From sequence record OZ503099.1: a stretch of DNA of 48,179 bases; one strand, given 5' to 3'. The notes below the pieces were generated by a model. That model did not search any database and was not told the DNA's origin. It was given only the letters and a program-made list of their open reading frames with translations. Each line of letters begins with the position of its first letter. Positions within the stretch are counted from its first letter, which is position 1. The translations under genes were made by a program, and so were the position numbers. Of the stretch, positions 8,891 through 48,179 are shown piece after piece. Origin of the DNA: a phage.

Positions 8891-8942
8891 TTGATTATAT
8901 CATCTCAGTAGTGTTGACACCTGCTAGGTGGTGATGTAGATT
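8891..8942. promoter_or_regulatory. Bidirectional promoter module
   Basis: Minus-facing extended -10 TGaTATAAT (8894-8902); plus-facing TTGACA (8914-8919), 17 bp, TAGATT (8937-8942). Confidence 0.45.
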
Positions 8943-8977: not shown

Positions 8978-9271
8978 ATGAAAATTAAAATGTTGATTAC
9001 ATCTGTCCTGTTGGCTTCTTCTTTTGCCGTCAGTGCAACTTCCGAGGTGTGCAAAAACATCGGAGAAATCGCCATGAACACTGCAGATGTTCGCGATAAC
9101 GGTATCAGCAAGAATCTTGCGGAAGTGGTGGTAAAAGGTTCCGCAAAAAACAACGAATCAGCAGAAATAATCGGCCTTGCTATCGTAGAAATGGTTTATG
9201 CACGCAAGGATATGACCAAAGAGCAATTGCGTGATGTGGCTGTTTCTTTGTGCGAAAAGCAAGGGATGTAA
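8978..9271 (+). CDS. Small secreted protein (N-terminal signal peptide)
   Basis: MKIKMLITSVLLASSFAVSA then TSE: typical Sec signal peptide; RBS GAGGTGAG upstream; first gene of plus-strand island A. Confidence 0.55.
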   Translation: MKIKMLITSVLLASSFAVSATSEVCKNIGEIAMNTADVRDNGISKNLAEVVVKGSAKNNESAEIIGLAIVEMVYARKDMTKEQLRDVAVSLCEKQGM

Positions 9272-9280
9272 GATTCTGCT

Positions 9281-9424
9281 ATGAACGAACAAACAAAAGC
9301 TGACCTGATTTTCTATACTGATTTGTATGTCGATGCGGGTTACGACTACGAAGAAGCGGAACGCATGGCGAAAGACTTACTCCGCGTGATTGGCGTGATT
9401 TTTGATGAGGATAAGGTGATATGA
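9281..9424 (+). CDS. Hypothetical small acidic protein (47 aa)
   Basis: ATG 9281 to TGA 9424, hand-translated; stop overlaps next start (ATGA). Confidence 0.35.
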   Translation: MNEQTKADLIFYTDLYVDAGYDYEEAERMAKDLLRVIGVIFDEDKVI

Positions 9425-9711
9425 AAAATTATGAAGAGATGAGCGATTTTGAGATTAACTGCCGTGTGCACGCAGAGATTATGCAAATCTCAGGGTTGAA
9501 TTCATTTAAGGCAAAAGACTACTGCAACAACCCATCTTATGCATGGCCCATAATAATTGATAATCACATGTCAATTGAATGCGTCACGGTTAACCGGCAT
9601 GCGTTTACATATCGCGTGTATCACTCTGCATCGTTCACTAAAAGTACGCACGAAAACCCCCTTCGTGCCGCCATGATCGTCTTCCTTAAAATGAATGAGG
9701 ATAAATTATGA
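9421..9711 (+). CDS. Hypothetical protein
   Basis: 96-aa ORF, translationally coupled within island A. Confidence 0.5.
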   Translation: MKNYEEMSDFEINCRVHAEIMQISGLNSFKAKDYCNNPSYAWPIIIDNHMSIECVTVNRHAFTYRVYHSASFTKSTHENPLRAAMIVFLKMNEDKL

Positions 9712-9908
9712 GCCAGTGGATTAAGTGTAGTGAAATGCTACCTGGTAACGGTAGTACAGATAAAGAGTTCTTGGTGTATGAAACTTTGAATAATGCCGTT
9801 CAGCACGACTACTACATTGTTCCTGACGACGAGAGAAAGCCATTCTGGAATCACTACGGAAAATATGTAACGCACTGGATGCCACTACCACAACCACCAC
9901 AAGAATAA
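9708..9908 (+). CDS. DUF551-like small phage protein
   Basis: MSQWIKCSEMLPGNG...THWMPLPQPP resembles the DUF551 pattern as I remember it. Confidence 0.45.
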   Translation: MSQWIKCSEMLPGNGSTDKEFLVYETLNNAVQHDYYIVPDDERKPFWNHYGKYVTHWMPLPQPPQE

Positions 9909-9910
9909 AC

Positions 9911-9937
9911 AAAGCCCCTTTCGGGGCTTTTTCTTTA
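9911..9937. terminator. Rho-independent terminator (bidirectional)
   Basis: AAAGCCCC-TTTC-GGGGCTTT hairpin followed by T-run; flanked by A-run on the other side. Confidence 0.6.
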
Positions 9938-10654
9938 TCAGGACACGGTGCACGCCGTGCTGATGATAATTTCCGGGTCAGTGGACGAATCTGTGACCGT
10001 AACGGTATACACACCATCGGTAGGGCTTGCCAGCGATGCGCCAGACTCACCACCGACAACCACGCCGTCTTTGCGCCACACGTAGGTGTAAGGAGCGACG
10101 CCACCTTCAACAGCAACAGTTAACGGGCTGCCAGTGCTGCCAGTTGATTGCAGGTCGGTGGTGAACTTCAGTGGCTCAAGGCTTTCGACGGTAACGCTGT
10201 CAGAATCGTAAACCTTGAACTCAAGGCTGCCAGTTACGATGTCGTTGGTGCCGCCTTCATAACTGATGCTGGTGATGTTGCAGTACGCGGTAACGATAGT
10301 TGCACCAGTTACCTCACGTACCCACAAAGAAGGCTGACGACGCGCTTTCAGTTCGGTGGCGTAAATCTCAACCAGACGATGAAAACCAAACTCATCGCTC
10401 GGGTCATTCTTGCGGATTTCAACCTCAGCACTGATGGTCATATCAGAGCTGGTTACGAGAGTGGAAACAAAGCCGCCAGCGGTATCCGCTTCCGACGTAG
10501 TGGTCTGCGGCGAGTAGTCAACGCCTTTACTGGTGGTTGAGCCTAAATATTTCCAGTCACCTGCATCCGGGACTGCGTCACCGCACCCTTCAGCAAGGAA
10601 CAGTCTGGTCATGCGACCGACCAGAACGCCTTTATCATTTGCACAAATAGCCAT
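9938..10654 (-). CDS. Major tail protein with C-terminal Ig-like domain (gpV-like position)
   Basis: 238 aa upstream of chaperone/tape measure; C-terminal segment with Ig-like (Big_2-type) sequence character. Confidence 0.5.
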   Translation of the reverse strand: MAICANDKGVLVGRMTRLFLAEGCGDAVPDAGDWKYLGSTTSKGVDYSPQTTTSEADTAGGFVSTLVTSSDMTISAEVEIRKNDPSDEFGFHRLVEIYATELKARRQPSLWVREVTGATIVTAYCNITSISYEGGTNDIVTGSLEFKVYDSDSVTVESLEPLKFTTDLQSTGSTGSPLTVAVEGGVAPYTYVWRKDGVVVGGESGASLASPTDGVYTVTVTDSSTDPEIIISTACTVS

Positions 10655-10690
10655 TTCGATCTCCGAATTGTGTTAGCTGCTAACGTGGTG

Positions 10691-10734
10691 ATTATATCAC
10701 AGGTGTTGACAGTGATTATTTTGTGGTGTAGATT
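10691..10734. promoter_or_regulatory. Bidirectional promoter module (paralogue of 8891-8942)
   Basis: Minus-facing TGaTATAAT (10691-10699); plus-facing TTGACA (10706-10711), 17 bp, TAGATT (10729-10734); shares GATTATATCA with the 8891 module. Confidence 0.45.
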
Positions 10735-10735
10735 G

Positions 10736-11228
10736 TATTTCAGATAGTTTTCGTTAGCGACTTTGCGGACTTTTTAGAAACTGACCACAAAGATAAATGC
10801 AAACGATGATGTTGTTCTGATGGCGGCGTAATAGCCTGTAAGTCAGCAAGGTCTTCCGATTCCTTGTAAACAAATTCGGCGCAGTGGCCCGCTGTGATTA
10901 ATAATGGGCACGCAACAGGTAAGAGCATTGGGTAATGTCAGCCTTGGTTCGAAGTCGAAAGACATGCGGTAATACCCAGCCCAAGTTCCAGTGCTCTTTC
11001 CGTTGTGGTGAAGCTCAATGGCGAGCTAGCAGATAGGCGACAGTGAAAATACTAGTCATGTAGCTGACCGCCGCGCGTACTGTAATCGGCAGCGCACCGA
11101 TGGAAGCAGGTTCGATTCCTGTCGCCACAACACTTAATATCCAGCATTATCGCAATCATATGTAGGGGTATGTATGGGTTACGGGGCTGGATATTAAGAA
11201 AGCACGCTGGCAATGCTTAAGCCAGTAA
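10736..11228 (+). other. Orphan transcribed non-coding region (candidate ncRNA or decayed island)
   Basis: About 500 bp between a consensus plus-strand promoter and a terminator, with no ORF above about 20 aa on the plus strand; 13-bp inverted repeat at 11141-11153 / 11187-11199. Confidence 0.3.
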
Positions 11229-11258
11229 TAAAGCCGCTTCATGCGGCTTTATTTATTT
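11229..11258. terminator. Rho-independent terminator
   Basis: AGCCGC-TTCAT-GCGGCT hairpin followed by TTATTTATTT. Confidence 0.5.
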
Positions 11259-11627
11259 CACAACCCGCAAAAGCAACTCATGCACAGGCCGCTTCTCTTC
11301 CGTTAACATCGGCCTACCGAGCGGCGCTTGCAACTGGATGTAGTTAACGCATGAATCAATCGGATTAGTTTTGATGTATTCGATAATCTCATTGGCTTTA
11401 GCGTCAACATCCGACACGTTGTATTGACCATGTTTGCCAACAACATACAGAGAGAAATAGAAATCACCGCCGAGTCCATCCATAACCTGCGTACCGCCAT
11501 TGGATTGCAGGACAATAAATTGCTCATTGCCGTCTCCGGTGTCATTCCAGAACTGCAACTGCGAAGTCCAGCCATCGTATAATCCGGCATCCTGAAGATA
11601 TGCGTCAACCAGCTCAAGCATATTCAT
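11253..11627 (-). CDS. Hypothetical structural protein (connector/tail completion region)
   Basis: 124-aa ORF in an overlapping gene series between head and tail genes. Confidence 0.45.
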   Translation of the reverse strand: MNMLELVDAYLQDAGLYDGWTSQLQFWNDTGDGNEQFIVLQSNGGTQVMDGLGGDFYFSLYVVGKHGQYNVSDVDAKANEIIEYIKTNPIDSCVNYIQLQAPLGRPMLTEEKRPVHELLLRVVK

Positions 11628-12094
11628 TAGAGTGTCATCTCCTTCTTAATCACGCTATCAACAAGGTCTTTTGTGCGTTGCGCTGCTTTGGTCAGGAATT
11701 GTGGCTCGGCATTTGGGTCCCAGTAGTTACCTGTCAGCGAGCCGCCACCAAATTCCTTAACCTGTTTCGGTCCAAAATCTGAAAGGTTATTGGTCTTGCC
11801 AAAATGAGCGCGTGGCTTTCCTTTTAGTGTCCCCGGTGCGCGGTGAACATATAGAGCATAATCAGCAGAATAACCTATTTTCCCTGTTATCCTCGTCCCT
11901 GACACTTCCACCGTATCATATTGGCTATTGATAAGGTTTGATGTATCAATTGGCGTTATTGTTGCCGCTTCTGTGCGAATAATATAGTTGGCACTTTTGA
12001 TTGCTCTCACCGCTTTTTCTGCCGTGATAGTGCCAACTATCTGCTCAGTTTTGCGAATTGCCTCCTGAATACCTCTTAATTTCGCTGCCATCAC
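11627..12094 (-). CDS. Hypothetical structural protein (connector/tail completion region)
   Basis: 155-aa ORF; start/stop overlaps with neighbours. Confidence 0.45.
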   Translation of the reverse strand: MMAAKLRGIQEAIRKTEQIVGTITAEKAVRAIKSANYIIRTEAATITPIDTSNLINSQYDTVEVSGTRITGKIGYSADYALYVHRAPGTLKGKPRAHFGKTNNLSDFGPKQVKEFGGGSLTGNYWDPNAEPQFLTKAAQRTKDLVDSVIKKEMTL

Positions 12095-12438
12095 GTCACC
12101 AGTGCGAAATCCGGCGGCTCAGCACGATTGAACGTGTTGCCGTAATTAATCACATTCAGAATCTGATTTGCGCCAGCCACCAGAGGGTCAACTTCTGCCA
12201 CTGTGCCAATCATGATGTAGTCGCCAGTCTTAGCGCCAACATACTCAGTCCAGAAAGTATTCTTCTGCACAATCTCATTGCCTTTCGCATCGGTCGATAC
12301 ATCATCGTTAAAGCCATAGTCGCACATGATGCTCACTGGCGCGTCAAAAGTCGGCTTTCCGTACTTGTCAGTGCCGCTTTTGTGCCAGATCGTGCATGGT
12401 TGCGTGTAGCTCCAGTTAGCCAGTGAAGTCATTTGCAT
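12091..12438 (-). CDS. Hypothetical structural protein
   Basis: 115-aa ORF; ATGA-type overlap with upstream gene. Confidence 0.45.
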   Translation of the reverse strand: MQMTSLANWSYTQPCTIWHKSGTDKYGKPTFDAPVSIMCDYGFNDDVSTDAKGNEIVQKNTFWTEYVGAKTGDYIMIGTVAEVDPLVAGANQILNVINYGNTFNRAEPPDFALVT

Positions 12439-12857
12439 TTACTCCCGCGAACAACCGCAAACCACGGTTTACCGCTTCCGTCAGGGTCTTCCACCAAATC
12501 GCCAGTGCATCCAGCCGTATCCAGTAGTTTCATCTGATTGTACAGCGCCACCCACGGCTTGCTTCCGTAAGCGAATGATTGTGATGCGCCAGATGGTGCG
12601 CTCTGACTGGTAACGTAGCGACCAGCGGTATTTGCACTAATCAGGATGGAAGCCCACAGCATGATCGCATTTTGTCGGCATTCATCGTTTGGATAGCTCA
12701 GTTCAAGGCATTCACTGATTGATGCCACAAGACACAGAATACCGGATGCATCCGTTGTGGTAATAGTCATTCCACGGGATGCCATCTGGCTTACTAATTC
12801 TTCAGGTGTTGGTGCTGCCATTTTTTTTCGACTCCCGTACCTTCCACCACATTTCAA
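12429..12857 (-). CDS. Hypothetical structural protein
   Basis: 142-aa ORF in same series. Confidence 0.45.
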   Translation of the reverse strand: MKCGGRYGSRKKMAAPTPEELVSQMASRGMTITTTDASGILCLVASISECLELSYPNDECRQNAIMLWASILISANTAGRYVTSQSAPSGASQSFAYGSKPWVALYNQMKLLDTAGCTGDLVEDPDGSGKPWFAVVRGSKCK

Positions 12858-46497: not shown

Positions 46498-48179
46498 TCA
46501 TGCCGCCAGGTATATATCACGTAACATAGCATCTGCTGATGCAGTTGCTGAGTTTATTAAAGCACGGTTTCCCCTGATACTTATGTTAAGGAAGTACCCA
46601 CCATCGGCCCCGTTATATAACTTACGTCCCAAGTTTCCAGAAAGACTACTAATCTTAAAGGTGTCATTAGTCGTCAGAGAGTTATACGCGCTTTGAGTCA
46701 CTATGTCGTTACCATTACGAATCTGTACCGACACTGAAACAGGTGTAGTTCCGATAGATCCAGAGAATAATTTCATATATGGCACTTTAGCACCAGTAGT
46801 TGTGAAGAATTGACACCCAGACAGTTTGAACCACTTAGCGAGATTTAGGTTTGTTTCCGTGACTGTCGACGCTGAGAAATCGCCCAAAAATGCGACGTTT
46901 GCGGCAGAGATGTCATGATATACATTGTCATTGGCGGTCATAGGCATTATGGCGCTATCAAACACCTTGAATGTGCCACCCGTAACTTTAATGACATTTG
47001 GCACAGTTGGCTGAGATGAACCAAACACCGCGCTAAGACTCGTAATATCAGAATCACTAATATCGTAAACCCCGCGTGTGCTTGCGACAATAGCCACGCC
47101 TTTTTTGCCGTAGCGCAAATCCCTAACCTGATTAATCTTAACGCTGATGTTTTGTTTATTACCTGTTCCGGCGAAGGTTAATCCGGCGAAGGCCCCACGA
47201 TTAATAGTCACATGGCATGTTGTATCAATAGCCATTGGCGGTGAAGTTGTATCATCTGTGTAGTACGTGTCAAGCCAGTTACCAAACCCGAAGACCAGTG
47301 GCTGGTCACAGAAGTAATCGAAGTCATCAAGAGTTATTGACTCGGGGTGCTTTAAATACTGCGGCAGGTTAGAGTAGATGAAACGTCTATAGCGTTCACC
47401 AGTATATCGGCGAAGGTGTTTAAAGCCTTTTATTGTGATGTCCCTGAATAGTCGTGGTACGACTGGGGATCCAGGTGGCAGGATATCGCCGCCCGGATTG
47501 GTAGCCGACATATTGATCATCCCACCAATGAAATAACTTGGTATTGCGTTGTTGTCGTTATAAGTAAGCCCCCCTGACACAATACTATTTTCAATATAAA
47601 TATCGCCATCGAACCAACCACCTATATCATCACGGGTTTTGATCATCGTAGTTTCTACAGGCTGGTACGGGGCATTTAATGTTTCAGGTTTGAAATCACA
47701 TCGGATAACGTCTAGCCGCCCCATGCCGCACATACTAATCCCTTTGTCACCGACGGTGCAATCAATAAGCGACGTGCGGCCTTGCATCGGTTCGTGGAAG
47801 TCAAAGCGGTTCAGTTTACAATTAATGAAAGTGGTATTAGAGCATACTTCTCCAGCACTAGAACCCCAACCAAAACCCATCGAATACTGATTGATAAACC
47901 GGCAATCGAGGCAGAAATTATAGTTCAGAGTGTATGACGAGTACGCTAGTTGCCCACTACCATTCAGCGCCACGTTAGGATGAATATCATAACCCCATCT
48001 CACCTCGCAATCGAAGCAGTTAACCATACTGATAACGTATTCCGAACCGTCATCGAGAAGCGGGCGTTTGCTAACATTCGGCCCCCATATTTCGTAGCGA
48101 CTTAATCCTTTAAGCAGTACGTTAACGGCGTGCGGCTTCTCCTCAAAATTGAACTTTGGCAGCTTAATTATGGTGGTGT
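46498..48179 (-). CDS. Tailspike protein, C-terminal part (beta-helix-like; continues at 1-1154)
   Basis: Repetitive Gly/Asn/Cys-containing segments typical of right-handed beta-helix tailspikes; frame open upstream of Met 48027 to the window end. Confidence 0.6.
   Translation of the reverse strand, partial: TTIIKLPKFNFEEKPHAVNVLLKGLSRYEIWGPNVSKRPLLDDGSEYVISMVNCFDCEVRWGYDIHPNVALNGSGQLAYSSYTLNYNFCLDCRFINQYSMGFGWGSSAGEVCSNTTFINCKLNRFDFHEPMQGRTSLIDCTVGDKGISMCGMGRLDVIRCDFKPETLNAPYQPVETTMIKTRDDIGGWFDGDIYIENSIVSGGLTYNDNNAIPSYFIGGMINMSATNPGGDILPPGSPVVPRLFRDITIKGFKHLRRYTGERYRRFIYSNLPQYLKHPESITLDDFDYFCDQPLVFGFGNWLDTYYTDDTTSPPMAIDTTCHVTINRGAFAGLTFAGTGNKQNISVKINQVRDLRYGKKGVAIVASTRGVYDISDSDITSLSAVFGSSQPTVPNVIKVTGGTFKVFDSAIMPMTANDNVYHDISAANVAFLGDFSASTVTETNLNLAKWFKLSGCQFFTTTGAKVPYMKLFSGSIGTTPVSVSVQIRNGNDIVTQSAYNSLTTNDTFKISSLSGNLGRKLYNGADGGYFLNISIRGNRALINSATASADAMLRDIYLAA
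48053..48179. repeat. Terminal direct repeat, identical to 1-127
   Basis: Exact 127-bp identity with the window start. Confidence 0.9.

Follow-up and report, generated by a model that had tools for sequence, protein, structure and literature searches.

To our knowledge, transfer-messenger RNA (tmRNA) has so far been seen as a self-contained molecule, whose gene is standard, permuted or intron-containing and whose phage examples are either complete or reduced to the tRNA-like domain. The tmRNA database papers report phage tmRNAs only in mycobacteriophages, in Bacillus phage G and in the form known from phage DS6A (PMC4131195, PMC11915505), and the 79 phage sequences of the 2025 update were detected by tools for which a tRNA-like domain is obligatory (PMC11915505). 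The locus studied here lies at positions 10691-11258 of a 48,179-nucleotide (nt) stretch of phage DNA (sequence record OZ503099.1; the whole stretch is hereafter called the window). An initial annotation of the window had described this interval as an orphan promoter-to-terminator unit corresponding either to a structured non-coding RNA or to a decayed gene island. The first half of that proposal is well supported by our comparisons: the interval encodes a conserved, modular and structured non-coding phage RNA, whose covariation-supported core, hereafter M (10741-10909, about 170 nt), is derived from tmRNA. The second half finds no support: among relatives, hardly any variation is seen in the 5' 280 nt or in the 3' hairpins, and the differences consist of module swaps and insertions of tRNA genes; the syntenic comparison that had been suggested to look for a lost island revealed mosaicism around a conserved core and no decay.

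M resembles the standard one-piece tmRNA (SsrA, RF00023) in its A-rich leader with U and A at positions -5 and -4, its GCN resume codon without start codon, its tag of about ten codons that begins with A-N-D and ends in small hydrophobic residues plus A, and its helix 5, whose loop holds the stop codon and which is followed by H-type pseudoknots. Contrary to the standard molecule, M lacks a tRNA-like domain formed by its ends, helix 2 and pseudoknot 1, has two pseudoknots after the tag instead of three, and carries at its 5' end a segment antisense to tmRNA in place of an acceptor strand; it is also negative in ARAGORN and far below threshold in Rfam. The two-piece permuted tmRNAs of alpha- and beta-proteobacteria and cyanobacteria (RF04321, RF01849-RF01851) likewise distribute template and acceptor over separate base-paired RNAs, and RF04321 and RF01850 provide the best sub-threshold matches to M. 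Yet their two pieces come from one gene, one precursor and one organism and their coding piece begins with a 5' acceptor strand, whereas the putative partner of M is an intact host tmRNA, paired at pseudoknot 1 and the mRNA-like domain. GOLLD and ROOL are also modular, phage-borne RNAs of several hundred nt, often located by tRNA genes and poor in known functions, but they have no sequence or structure match here according to Rfam and lack a tag template and an antisense arm. Prophage-encoded anti-small RNAs (anti-sRNAs), reportedly described by Tree et al. in Molecular Cell in 2014, and small RNAs with a 5' seed (AgvB and AsxR of enterohaemorrhagic Escherichia coli prophages) share with M a conserved, probably 5'-terminal antisense segment directed at an abundant regulatory RNA of the host, a promoter of their own and an intrinsic terminator. 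They differ in that the putative target of M is tmRNA and not an Hfq-dependent small RNA, that its pairing would be much longer, with about 36 bp in five blocks, and that it carries a template of the translated type. Finally, the tmRNA of mycobacteriophage DS6A is half a tmRNA carried by a phage and proposed or shown to disturb host trans-translation (PMC4131195; PMC11915505); it keeps the tRNA-like half without the tag, whereas the M family has retained the tag half, without the tRNA-like one, and has an antisense arm in addition.

The tag frame of M (Table 1) reads GCA AAC GAT GAT GTT GTT CTG ATG GCG GCG TAA, and neither a start codon nor a Shine-Dalgarno sequence was found for it. The spacer that precedes it is 12 nt long in nearly all family members, and its U -5 and A -4 have their counterparts in U85 and A86 of E. 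coli tmRNA. From IMG/VR and GenBank, 83 family instances were gathered, which include 29 distinct tag genes. Every one of these tags is 10 amino acids (aa) long and has the form AN[D/E]x...[A/V]A, as in ANDDVVLMAA, ANDDLMMVAA, ANDEQFLAVA, ANDNVFLAVA, ANDNTFLAVA, ANEEMYLAVA and ANDSEMRVAA (the E. coli tag, for comparison, is ANDENYALAA). Variability peaks at the third codon position, with an entropy of 1.01 as against 0.63 at position 1 and 0.37 at position 2. Of 55 single-nucleotide codon variants, 28 are synonymous where 23% would be expected, the last tag codon may be any of the four alanine codons, and the stop may be TAA, TAG or TGA. This coding-type variation, together with the context of the spacer, leads us to read the frame as decoded in the manner of a tmRNA tag. 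M accordingly possesses an mRNA-like domain, with a resume codon devoid of initiation signals, a short tag and a degron-like end. In bacteria, SspB reads the ENY part of the tag, which the phage tags do not have; their Ala-Ala or AVA ends are kept. C-termini of the Ala-Ala or LVA-like type are ClpXP degrons (bioRxiv 10.1101/2024.01.29.576913). The outcome of tagging with the phage peptide could be an altered routing of the proteins rather than a loss of their degradation.

The secondary structure of M was evaluated by a covariation test on 51 non-redundant family members. For helix 5 and the two pseudoknots, 86.9% of the cells are paired, compared with 36-43% when the partners are slid by 1-3 columns; 16 pairs change on both sides, in 131 cells, and none of 500 shuffles reaches the observed values. 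The outer helix of helix 5 is paired in 98% of cases, one of its pairs alternating between G-C (29 sequences) and A-U (22). Each stem of the PK2-like pseudoknot has three pairs with changes on both sides, and each stem of the PK3-like pseudoknot has four; the latter also has a conserved loop, GAUUAAUAA, and a second stem of 4 to 8 bp, depending on the phage. Covariation thus supports helix 5 and, where tmRNA has three pseudoknots after the tag, two of the H type. The nested minimum-free-energy folding of M (z = +0.45) is uninformative, as pseudoknots are outside its model.

The covariance-model scan that the initial annotation had suggested returned nothing at curated thresholds, so that the kinship to tmRNA emerges only from sub-threshold matches and from comparison. 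ARAGORN, which also detects permuted tmRNA, found no tRNA or tmRNA in the window, and no Rfam model reached its gathering score in these 48 kb. At a permissive threshold, the best matches came from the tmRNA models RF04321 (30.4 bits, where 47 are required) and RF01850 (18 bits), which align on the tag-like frame; the credible part of the RF04321 alignment is restricted to the tag region. The standard model RF00023 scored 10.4 bits, where it also requires 47. All matches with E<=10 in 10600-11350 were tmRNA-related or noise. A tRNA-like domain formed by the ends of the RNA is absent, the 5' end abutting the promoter without any acceptor strand. No covarying intramolecular helix equivalent to pseudoknot 1 was found in the 5' arm, where the candidate AGUUU/AAACU helix does not covary, and no T arm occurs 5' of M in the window, where a two-piece permuted layout would place one. 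Because families differ in what precedes the nearly invariant motif AGUUUUCGU on its 5' side (in some it is a small stem-loop or the 3' strand of a long hairpin, in others a promoter or a terminator-like hairpin) and because the order of the accessory modules varies among families, a tRNA-like domain is not consistently attached to M. The segment GTGGTG at 10723-10728, which would pair with CGCCAC, was considered as a 5' acceptor strand and rejected: it lies between the -35 and -10 boxes, is repeated in a second promoter (8914-8942) and belongs to the family-variable 5' flank.

The 5' arm of M, which contains the letters AGUUUUCG, is complementary to tmRNA. The reverse complement of 10741-10761 is GUC GCU AAC GAA AAC UAU CUG, in the tag frame A-N-E-N-Y-L. 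When the E. coli ssrA sequence was fetched as a test target, the reverse complement of 10741-10790 aligned colinearly with nt 67-106 of the tmRNA with a score of 30 (shuffles 14.5 +/- 2.1; 2 of 5000 reach 30). When 58 distinct arms are taken together, they score 25.0 on average against tmRNA nt 51-125 (null 10.5 +/- 2.0, maximum 20) versus 11.6 against their own mRNA-like domain, and the host target outscores the arm's own domain in 58 of 58 cases. A partner sought in the 363 nt downstream and upstream of the arm scored 14.1 and 13.7, respectively, which is the null level. At least 80% of the arms have the same footprint (tmRNA nt 57-62, 68-73, 75-81, 86-91 and 96-106), with a mean predicted duplex of 36 bp and -41.5 kcal/mol (-19.5 +/- 4.9 for shuffled arms) and linkers of 2 to 12 nt and variable sequence between the paired blocks. 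The arms of the Felixounavirus and L036 types pair with this tmRNA stretch in different registers, and those of Aeromonas and Erwinia phages differ in sequence and complement the same stretch. A hidden Markov model of the family matches each of 120 tmRNAs (120/120) in two places: through its mRNA-like part it finds the sense strand, and through its arm part the opposite strand of nt 65-104, the latter with E values of 0.05-0.1 each. Since tmRNA nt 50-125 are not self-complementary, sense homology cannot mimic the complementarity of the arm. The target region is nearly invariant in the 120 species, mainly Enterobacterales, an invariance that would account for the conservation of the arm in phages with different hosts. 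The arm is thus complementary to a defined host RNA beyond chance, and intramolecular pairing does not account for this. A 14-nt match of the arm to 10839-10852 was considered as an intramolecular partner and discarded, as it is not conserved in other families. Elsewhere in the window, a 24-nt stretch within 47101-47150 on the minus strand, in the ORF (open reading frame) 46498-48027 (509 aa), is identical to E. coli tmRNA nt 224-248 at 21 of 24 positions; as a second tmRNA-like element it is probably due to chance, the region being coding, and it serves to calibrate the alignment null and its false positives.

High-identity matches to the interval occur in 399 phage records, the closest relatives being the Salmonella and Escherichia siphoviruses seszw, PSH-1, Akira, STGO-35-1, ZCEC08 and Bas77-79. 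In an alignment of four relatives, the first 280 nt or so past the promoter, the 3' hairpins and the terminator are nearly invariant and the middle is exchanged one module at a time; just before the terminator, relatives have insertions of one or two tRNA genes (Met, Ile, or Ser plus Arg), and ARAGORN finds no tRNA gene in the unit of the window. A sensitive BLAST search with 10700-11215 extends the matches to 831 phage records, mostly via the first 230 nt or so. M was found in relatives of the window's siphovirus, in P1, in lambdoid phages, in Felixounavirus, Kuttervirus, Schitoviridae and Chaseviridae, and also in Klebsiella, Erwinia and Aeromonas phages. It lies 3' of the C1-controlled Op(ban) operator and 5' of tRNA-Asn and tRNA-Thr in P1 and P7, within the tRNA cluster and directly after a TTGACA-17-TATAGT promoter in Felixounavirus, and in the late leader, between tR' and the holin gene, in lambdoid phages (IMG/VR contigs whose flanks match the HK75 late region). 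M adjoins tRNA genes in the siphovirus relatives, P1, Felixounavirus and Roufvirus; the unit has no tRNA gene in the window or in the Schitoviridae, Aeromonas and Erwinia phage loci. Among 5426 complete E. coli genomes, 656 (12%) contain M, at 150 chromosomal and 554 plasmid places, and it is annotated in none; nor is it annotated in the GenBank and RefSeq records that were examined. No description of this RNA family was found in Rfam or in the searchable literature, a search that leaves subscription-only publications, and thus possibly a prior description, outside its scope. Several GenBank records, including L362 (pYD38-A, 623-910), annotate "hypothetical protein" coding sequences on either strand over the RNA unit, and one (PQ186186) labels a 3' portion of a downstream module as tRNA-Ser; both look like annotation artefacts.

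Table 1 Features of the RNA unit in the window, with positions in window coordinates; the arm segments are listed with their predicted partners in the host tmRNA
Feature	Position	Strand	Description
Sigma-70-type promoter	10706-10734	+	-35 TTGACA 10706-10711, 17-nt spacer, -10 TAGATT 10729-10734
5' arm, putatively antisense to host tmRNA, about nt 57-107	10743-10786	+	five paired segments
Arm segment	10745-10755		tmRNA 96-106 (tag codons 3-6)
Arm segment	10757-10762		tmRNA 86-91 (around the resume codon)
Arm segment	10763-10768		tmRNA 75-80
Arm segment	10770-10776		tmRNA 68-74
Arm segment	10781-10786		tmRNA 57-62 (pseudoknot 1)
A-rich single-stranded spacer ACAAAGAUAAAU	10787-10798	+	12 nt; U at -5 and A at -4 before the resume codon
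tmRNA-type tag frame	10799-10831	+	GCA resume codon, ten codons (ANDDVVLMAA), stop TAA
Helix 5 equivalent	10817-10846	+	CUGA..GGC / GCC..UCAG; stop codon in loop
H-type pseudoknot, PK2-like	10847-10879	+	S1 10847-10851 / 10862-10866; S2 10856-10859 / 10876-10879
H-type pseudoknot, PK3-like	10880-10909	+	S1 10880-10884 / 10892-10896; S2 10887-10890 / 10906-10909
Long imperfect hairpin (LH)	10913-11005	+	CAACAGGUAAGAGCAUUG ... CAGUGCUCUUUCCGUUG; apical part variable
tRNA-shaped S domain, 127 nt	11004-11130 (entry 11002-11131)	+	acceptor-like UGUGGUG 11004-11010 / CGCCACA 11123-11129, extendable to 10 bp
Hairpin HP1	11133-11198	+	closed by a perfect 13-bp repeat, 11133-11145 / 11186-11198; inner hairpin
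Hairpin HP2	11206-11226	+	GCUGGC-AAUGCUUAA-GCCAGU
Intrinsic terminator	11227-11260	+	11-bp perfect stem 11227-11237 / 11243-11253, 5-nt loop, U-rich tail

The region downstream of M appears to be made up of exchangeable accessory modules that belong to one transcript with M, namely the long hairpin, the tRNA-shaped domain and the smaller hairpins, which tRNA genes join in the relatives. The stems of LH differ in a compensatory manner in P1 and L036, its apex is swapped among relatives, and the hairpin recurs 5' or 3' of M in other phages. The S domain contains a D-like arm, a long anticodon-like arm, an extra arm and a T arm, whose loop GGTTCGATTCC stands exactly at 11109-11119, where the initial annotation had noticed a T-loop-like motif. 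This motif does belong to a tRNA-shaped domain, although not to a detectable tRNA: the window yields no ARAGORN prediction and no Rfam tRNA match there, and the anticodon arm is an irregular helix of about 50 nt. A11130 is followed by CAC and not CCA, and the 3:70 pair is U-A and not G3.U70. Eight compensatory pairs were counted among four sequences of the domain, which scores 10-20 bits on the Rfam tmRNA model through its T arm and the preceding strand; the tRNA-Ser label of PQ186186 covers its 3' 58 nt. Relatives keep the closing stem of S and swap its interior. Lambdoid phage HK75, which has no M, carries a segment 94% identical to the domain: positions 880-1045 of HK75 (L009), between tR' and the holin gene, correspond to 10989-11131 of the window, that is, to S and the preceding long hairpin. 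These modules therefore move independently of M between unrelated phages. The perfect 13-bp inverted repeat of the initial annotation exists as the closing stem of HP1, with its coordinates corrected from 11141-11153 / 11187-11199 to those of Table 1, and three independent substitutions in relatives leave it G-U compatible. Hairpins similar to HP2 recur in TR2 and in the S domain of L177. Folding gave z = -1.2 for LH plus the S domain and z = -6.3 for the 3' part (HP1, HP2 and terminator), the sole part of the unit to stand out in this respect.

Other unannotated tRNA-like elements were observed near M in several families. In the Felixounavirus Alf5 (L006), a 78-nt element at 1065-1146, without D arm and one hairpin 3' of the core, has G3.U70, A73 and an encoded CCA, which together are the identity set for alanine; its score on the Rfam tRNA model is 31.7 bits. 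The related L101 has an ordinary tRNA-Arg(UCU) at this position. Two such elements lie 3' of the core in the Kuttervirus Cba120 (L005, about 1150-1350), one of 65 nt with a GNRA-capped stub for anticodon arm, a G3.A70 mismatch and CCA, and one of 122 nt that ends in U-CCA. In the N4-like Schitoviridae phage TR2 (L008, 480-950), hairpins that follow the core in P1 (CGGGUAUAUCCCG and the pseudoknot-like motif CUGUUACCGAA) sit upstream of it, as does a T-loop element without matching acceptor stem; the order of the modules looks circularly permuted between families.

These features suggest how M might act. The RNA would be transcribed from its own sigma-70 promoter and its arm would pair with the abundant tmRNA of the host; host SsrA remains abundant in phage infections (bioRxiv 10.64898/2026.03.30.715471). 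The pairing would span pseudoknot 1 to tag codon 6, leaving the host resume codon and tag template occluded. The spacer and resume codon of the phage would exit the duplex at the end nearest to the host tRNA-like domain, and the hybrid could therefore act as a two-piece tmRNA: the Ala-tRNA-like domain of the host, with SmpB, would enter the stalled ribosome, the phage template would be translated, and the tag borne by rescued proteins would be that of the phage and not ANDENYALAA. The best explanation, to which we incline tentatively and without full conviction, is that the tmRNA-derived M pairs with host tmRNA, blocks its tag template and probably substitutes the phage tag. The stronger claim that M is a parasitic trans-translation template, which strand-invades pseudoknot 1 and the mRNA-like domain of the host to form an inter-kingdom two-piece tmRNA, and by which phages of at least seven families rewrite the tag and fate of every rescued protein, is rather doubtful.

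Several points weigh against a pairing of this kind. The RNA, the duplex and the tagged peptide are predictions, as are the transcription start and the RNA ends. The complementarity of the arm was noticed post hoc, after the homology, and its significance per sequence is about 4e-4; one unrelated coding 50-mer of the window equals its score, against another part of tmRNA, and the 58 arms share ancestry and are thus not independent observations. The RNAduplex energy of the arm with the whole tmRNA is unexceptional among other genomic 66-mers, and this measure was replaced by colinear alignment scores and the analysis of the restricted target. Pairing would also require the invasion of pseudoknot 1, which contains half of the target, and we know of no precedent for an interrupted duplex of about 40 bp on the ribosome. 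Moreover, the Salmonella tmRNA, whose tag is ANDETYALAA (PMC12493166), has GAA ACC for GAA AAC (A103C), so that the central helix contains a U.C mismatch. No compensatory change is seen in Salmonella phages, among them the closest relatives of the window. Extensive pairing remains, with a score of 26 instead of 30 and a duplex energy of -38.7 instead of -43.4 kcal/mol. With a target nearly invariant in the 120 species, A103C is the sole informative case of host-specific covariation between arm and tmRNA. Divergent mRNA-like domains are found in Yersinia (ANDSQYESAALAA) and in Pasteurellaceae (ANDEQYALAA).

A further point against a dependence on host tmRNA is that the non-canonical tRNA-like elements located by M in many family members could supply a tRNA-like domain in cis. 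In that case, M and a downstream tRNA-shaped domain, covalently linked or in two pieces, would form a self-contained, rearranged phage tmRNA, with the tRNA-like domain 3' of the tag template and not enclosing it, and the arm would silence the host tmRNA or be a relic. Elements with a 7-bp acceptor stem, a T arm and often NCCA do lie 200-500 nt 3' of M in several families: besides those of Felixounavirus and Kuttervirus described above, the elements of Schitoviridae, of about 130 nt, end in A-CCA, L177 has an S domain of the window's type with an A-CCA end, and the S interior and T arm resemble the 3' end of tmRNA (ACUAxxCAUGUAG ... GGAAGC-T arm). Nevertheless, the U3-A70 pair and CAC of the window's own S domain are not the G3.U70 and CCA that this would call for, its interior is replaced in relatives by an unrelated domain without T-loop (ZCEC08 type) or by a bare tetraloop (L025, L036), loci of the P1 type have no such element between M and their canonical tRNAs, HK75 has the domain without M, and RNase P would be expected to sever it from M. 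The lasting complementarity of the arm to host tmRNA would also be left unexplained, and this solution seems unlikely. The complementarity would fit equally well with a pure antisense inhibitor, or sponge, of host tmRNA, in which the remainder of M would never be translated and would only serve as a scaffold for stability or be left over from evolution. Prophage-encoded anti-sRNAs are known, and the tmRNA of DS6A, reduced to the tRNA-like domain, is a reported inhibitor of host tmRNA (PMC4131195). Yet the tag is under constraint at the protein level, as seen in the third codon position, the synonymous excess, the fixed ten codons and the A-N-D/E start; degron-like AA or AVA ends are kept, three different stop codons occur at one position, and the context of the resume codon (UA at -5/-4, 12-nt spacer) is preserved. 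The constraint on the tag and the resume context weigh against a pure inhibitor because a mere scaffold would need neither, and we regard it as improbable.

Two other explanations fit the data poorly. The linkage of M to tRNA genes in the siphovirus relatives, P1, Felixounavirus and Roufvirus, and the similarity of the long hairpin and S stems to processing hairpins, would suit a leader or processing scaffold of tRNA operons, made of a promoter, spacer hairpins and processing signals and devoid of any role in ribosome rescue; but the units without tRNA gene contradict it, it accounts for neither the tag frame nor the pseudoknots nor the arm, and it is very improbable. A minus-strand gene for a small protein (62 aa, 10740-10928), or a decayed gene island, is hardly credible. 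Stop-free minus-strand stretches of 49-71 codons do run over M in all the relatives examined, and hypothetical proteins are annotated there in some GenBank records. Nevertheless, the aligned frame is broken by stops in 5 of 12 representatives (Akira, P7, Cba120, Alf5, which has two, and L071), L059, L137 and L096 match only partially and frame-shifted, indels of 1, 5 and 3 nt separate close relatives, and the substitutions are compensatory for RNA pairs in a region that is conserved and not decaying.

The interval is a single promoter-to-terminator unit with a conserved ORF on neither strand. The TTGACA-17-TAGATT promoter announced by the initial annotation was recovered and agrees with the consensus at 10 of 12 positions. 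In 9500-12500, 5 generic promoter-like sites were counted where 4.2 are expected, which is chance level. The window has two copies of the exact pattern TTGACA-N16-18-TAGATT, at 8914-8942 and 10706-10734, and 100 shuffles have none. The hexamers are unchanged among relatives and spacer positions vary; the Roufvirus pYD38-A has the same promoter arrangement, and in Felixounavirus the distance from the promoter to the conserved motif is the same as in the window. Transcription would start at about 10741-10742. The terminator had also been correctly anticipated; its hairpin is followed by a T-rich tract, and it is missing from the list of a simple consensus scan. The claim that no plus-strand ORF exceeds about 20 aa was roughly right but understated: the longest has 33 aa (10935-11036), others 21-25 aa, stop-free runs reach 44 codons, and the 62-aa minus-strand ORF had gone unmentioned.

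Of the flanking minus-strand genes, which had been called structural, 9938-10654 corresponds to the major tail protein of relatives (tail tube, neck whiskers or fibritin in some records), and 11253-11627 to a protein called hypothetical, minor capsid or tail completion. The terminator hairpin (11227-11253) has T-rich tracts on both sides, lies directly past the stop codon of the convergent gene 11253-11627 and is symmetric enough to serve that gene as well. Because this bidirectional terminator lies inside a minus-strand operon, minus-strand transcription must cross it and about 600 nt antisense to the RNA unit before reaching the major tail protein gene. The second promoter of the exact type, TTGACA-N17-TAGATT at 8914-8942 on the plus strand, also with GGTG just before its -10 box, drives a plus-strand island of four small ORFs (8978-9908) between minus-strand structural genes, in agreement with the earlier remark that promoters of this kind precede gene islands; annotations in relatives include a superinfection-immunity (Imm) protein and a DUF551 protein. 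In the gap between the -35 box and the start of the major tail protein gene, two small palindromes, TTAGC-T-GCTAA at 10673-10683 and GTGAT-TAT-ATCAC at 10688-10700, are invariant in five relatives; they could be operators of the divergent promoter region or hairpins in the 5' untranslated region of the tail mRNA.

The descriptive part alone amounts to a new, widespread and covariation-supported family of phage RNAs, which annotation pipelines have missed or called hypothetical proteins. It is abundant and goes unannotated everywhere: more than 800 sequenced phages have it, among them such model phages as P1, Felix O1-like phages, CBA120 and the lambdoid phages, as do 12% of complete E. coli genomes. 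M is a tmRNA derivative, and its proposed mode of action would be new in kind: the family would be the missing converse of the tRNA-like-domain-only form, a derivative reduced to the tag template, unable to work alone and carrying an address label for the tmRNA of the host. If the pairing is true, phages would steer ribosome rescue and protein quality control at the RNA level and would offer a natural precedent for the reprogramming of the ssrA tag in trans, which would also explain why an "empty" unit of 0.6 kb is kept within the tail-gene operon. Many enterobacterial phages may thus block or hijack ribosome rescue.

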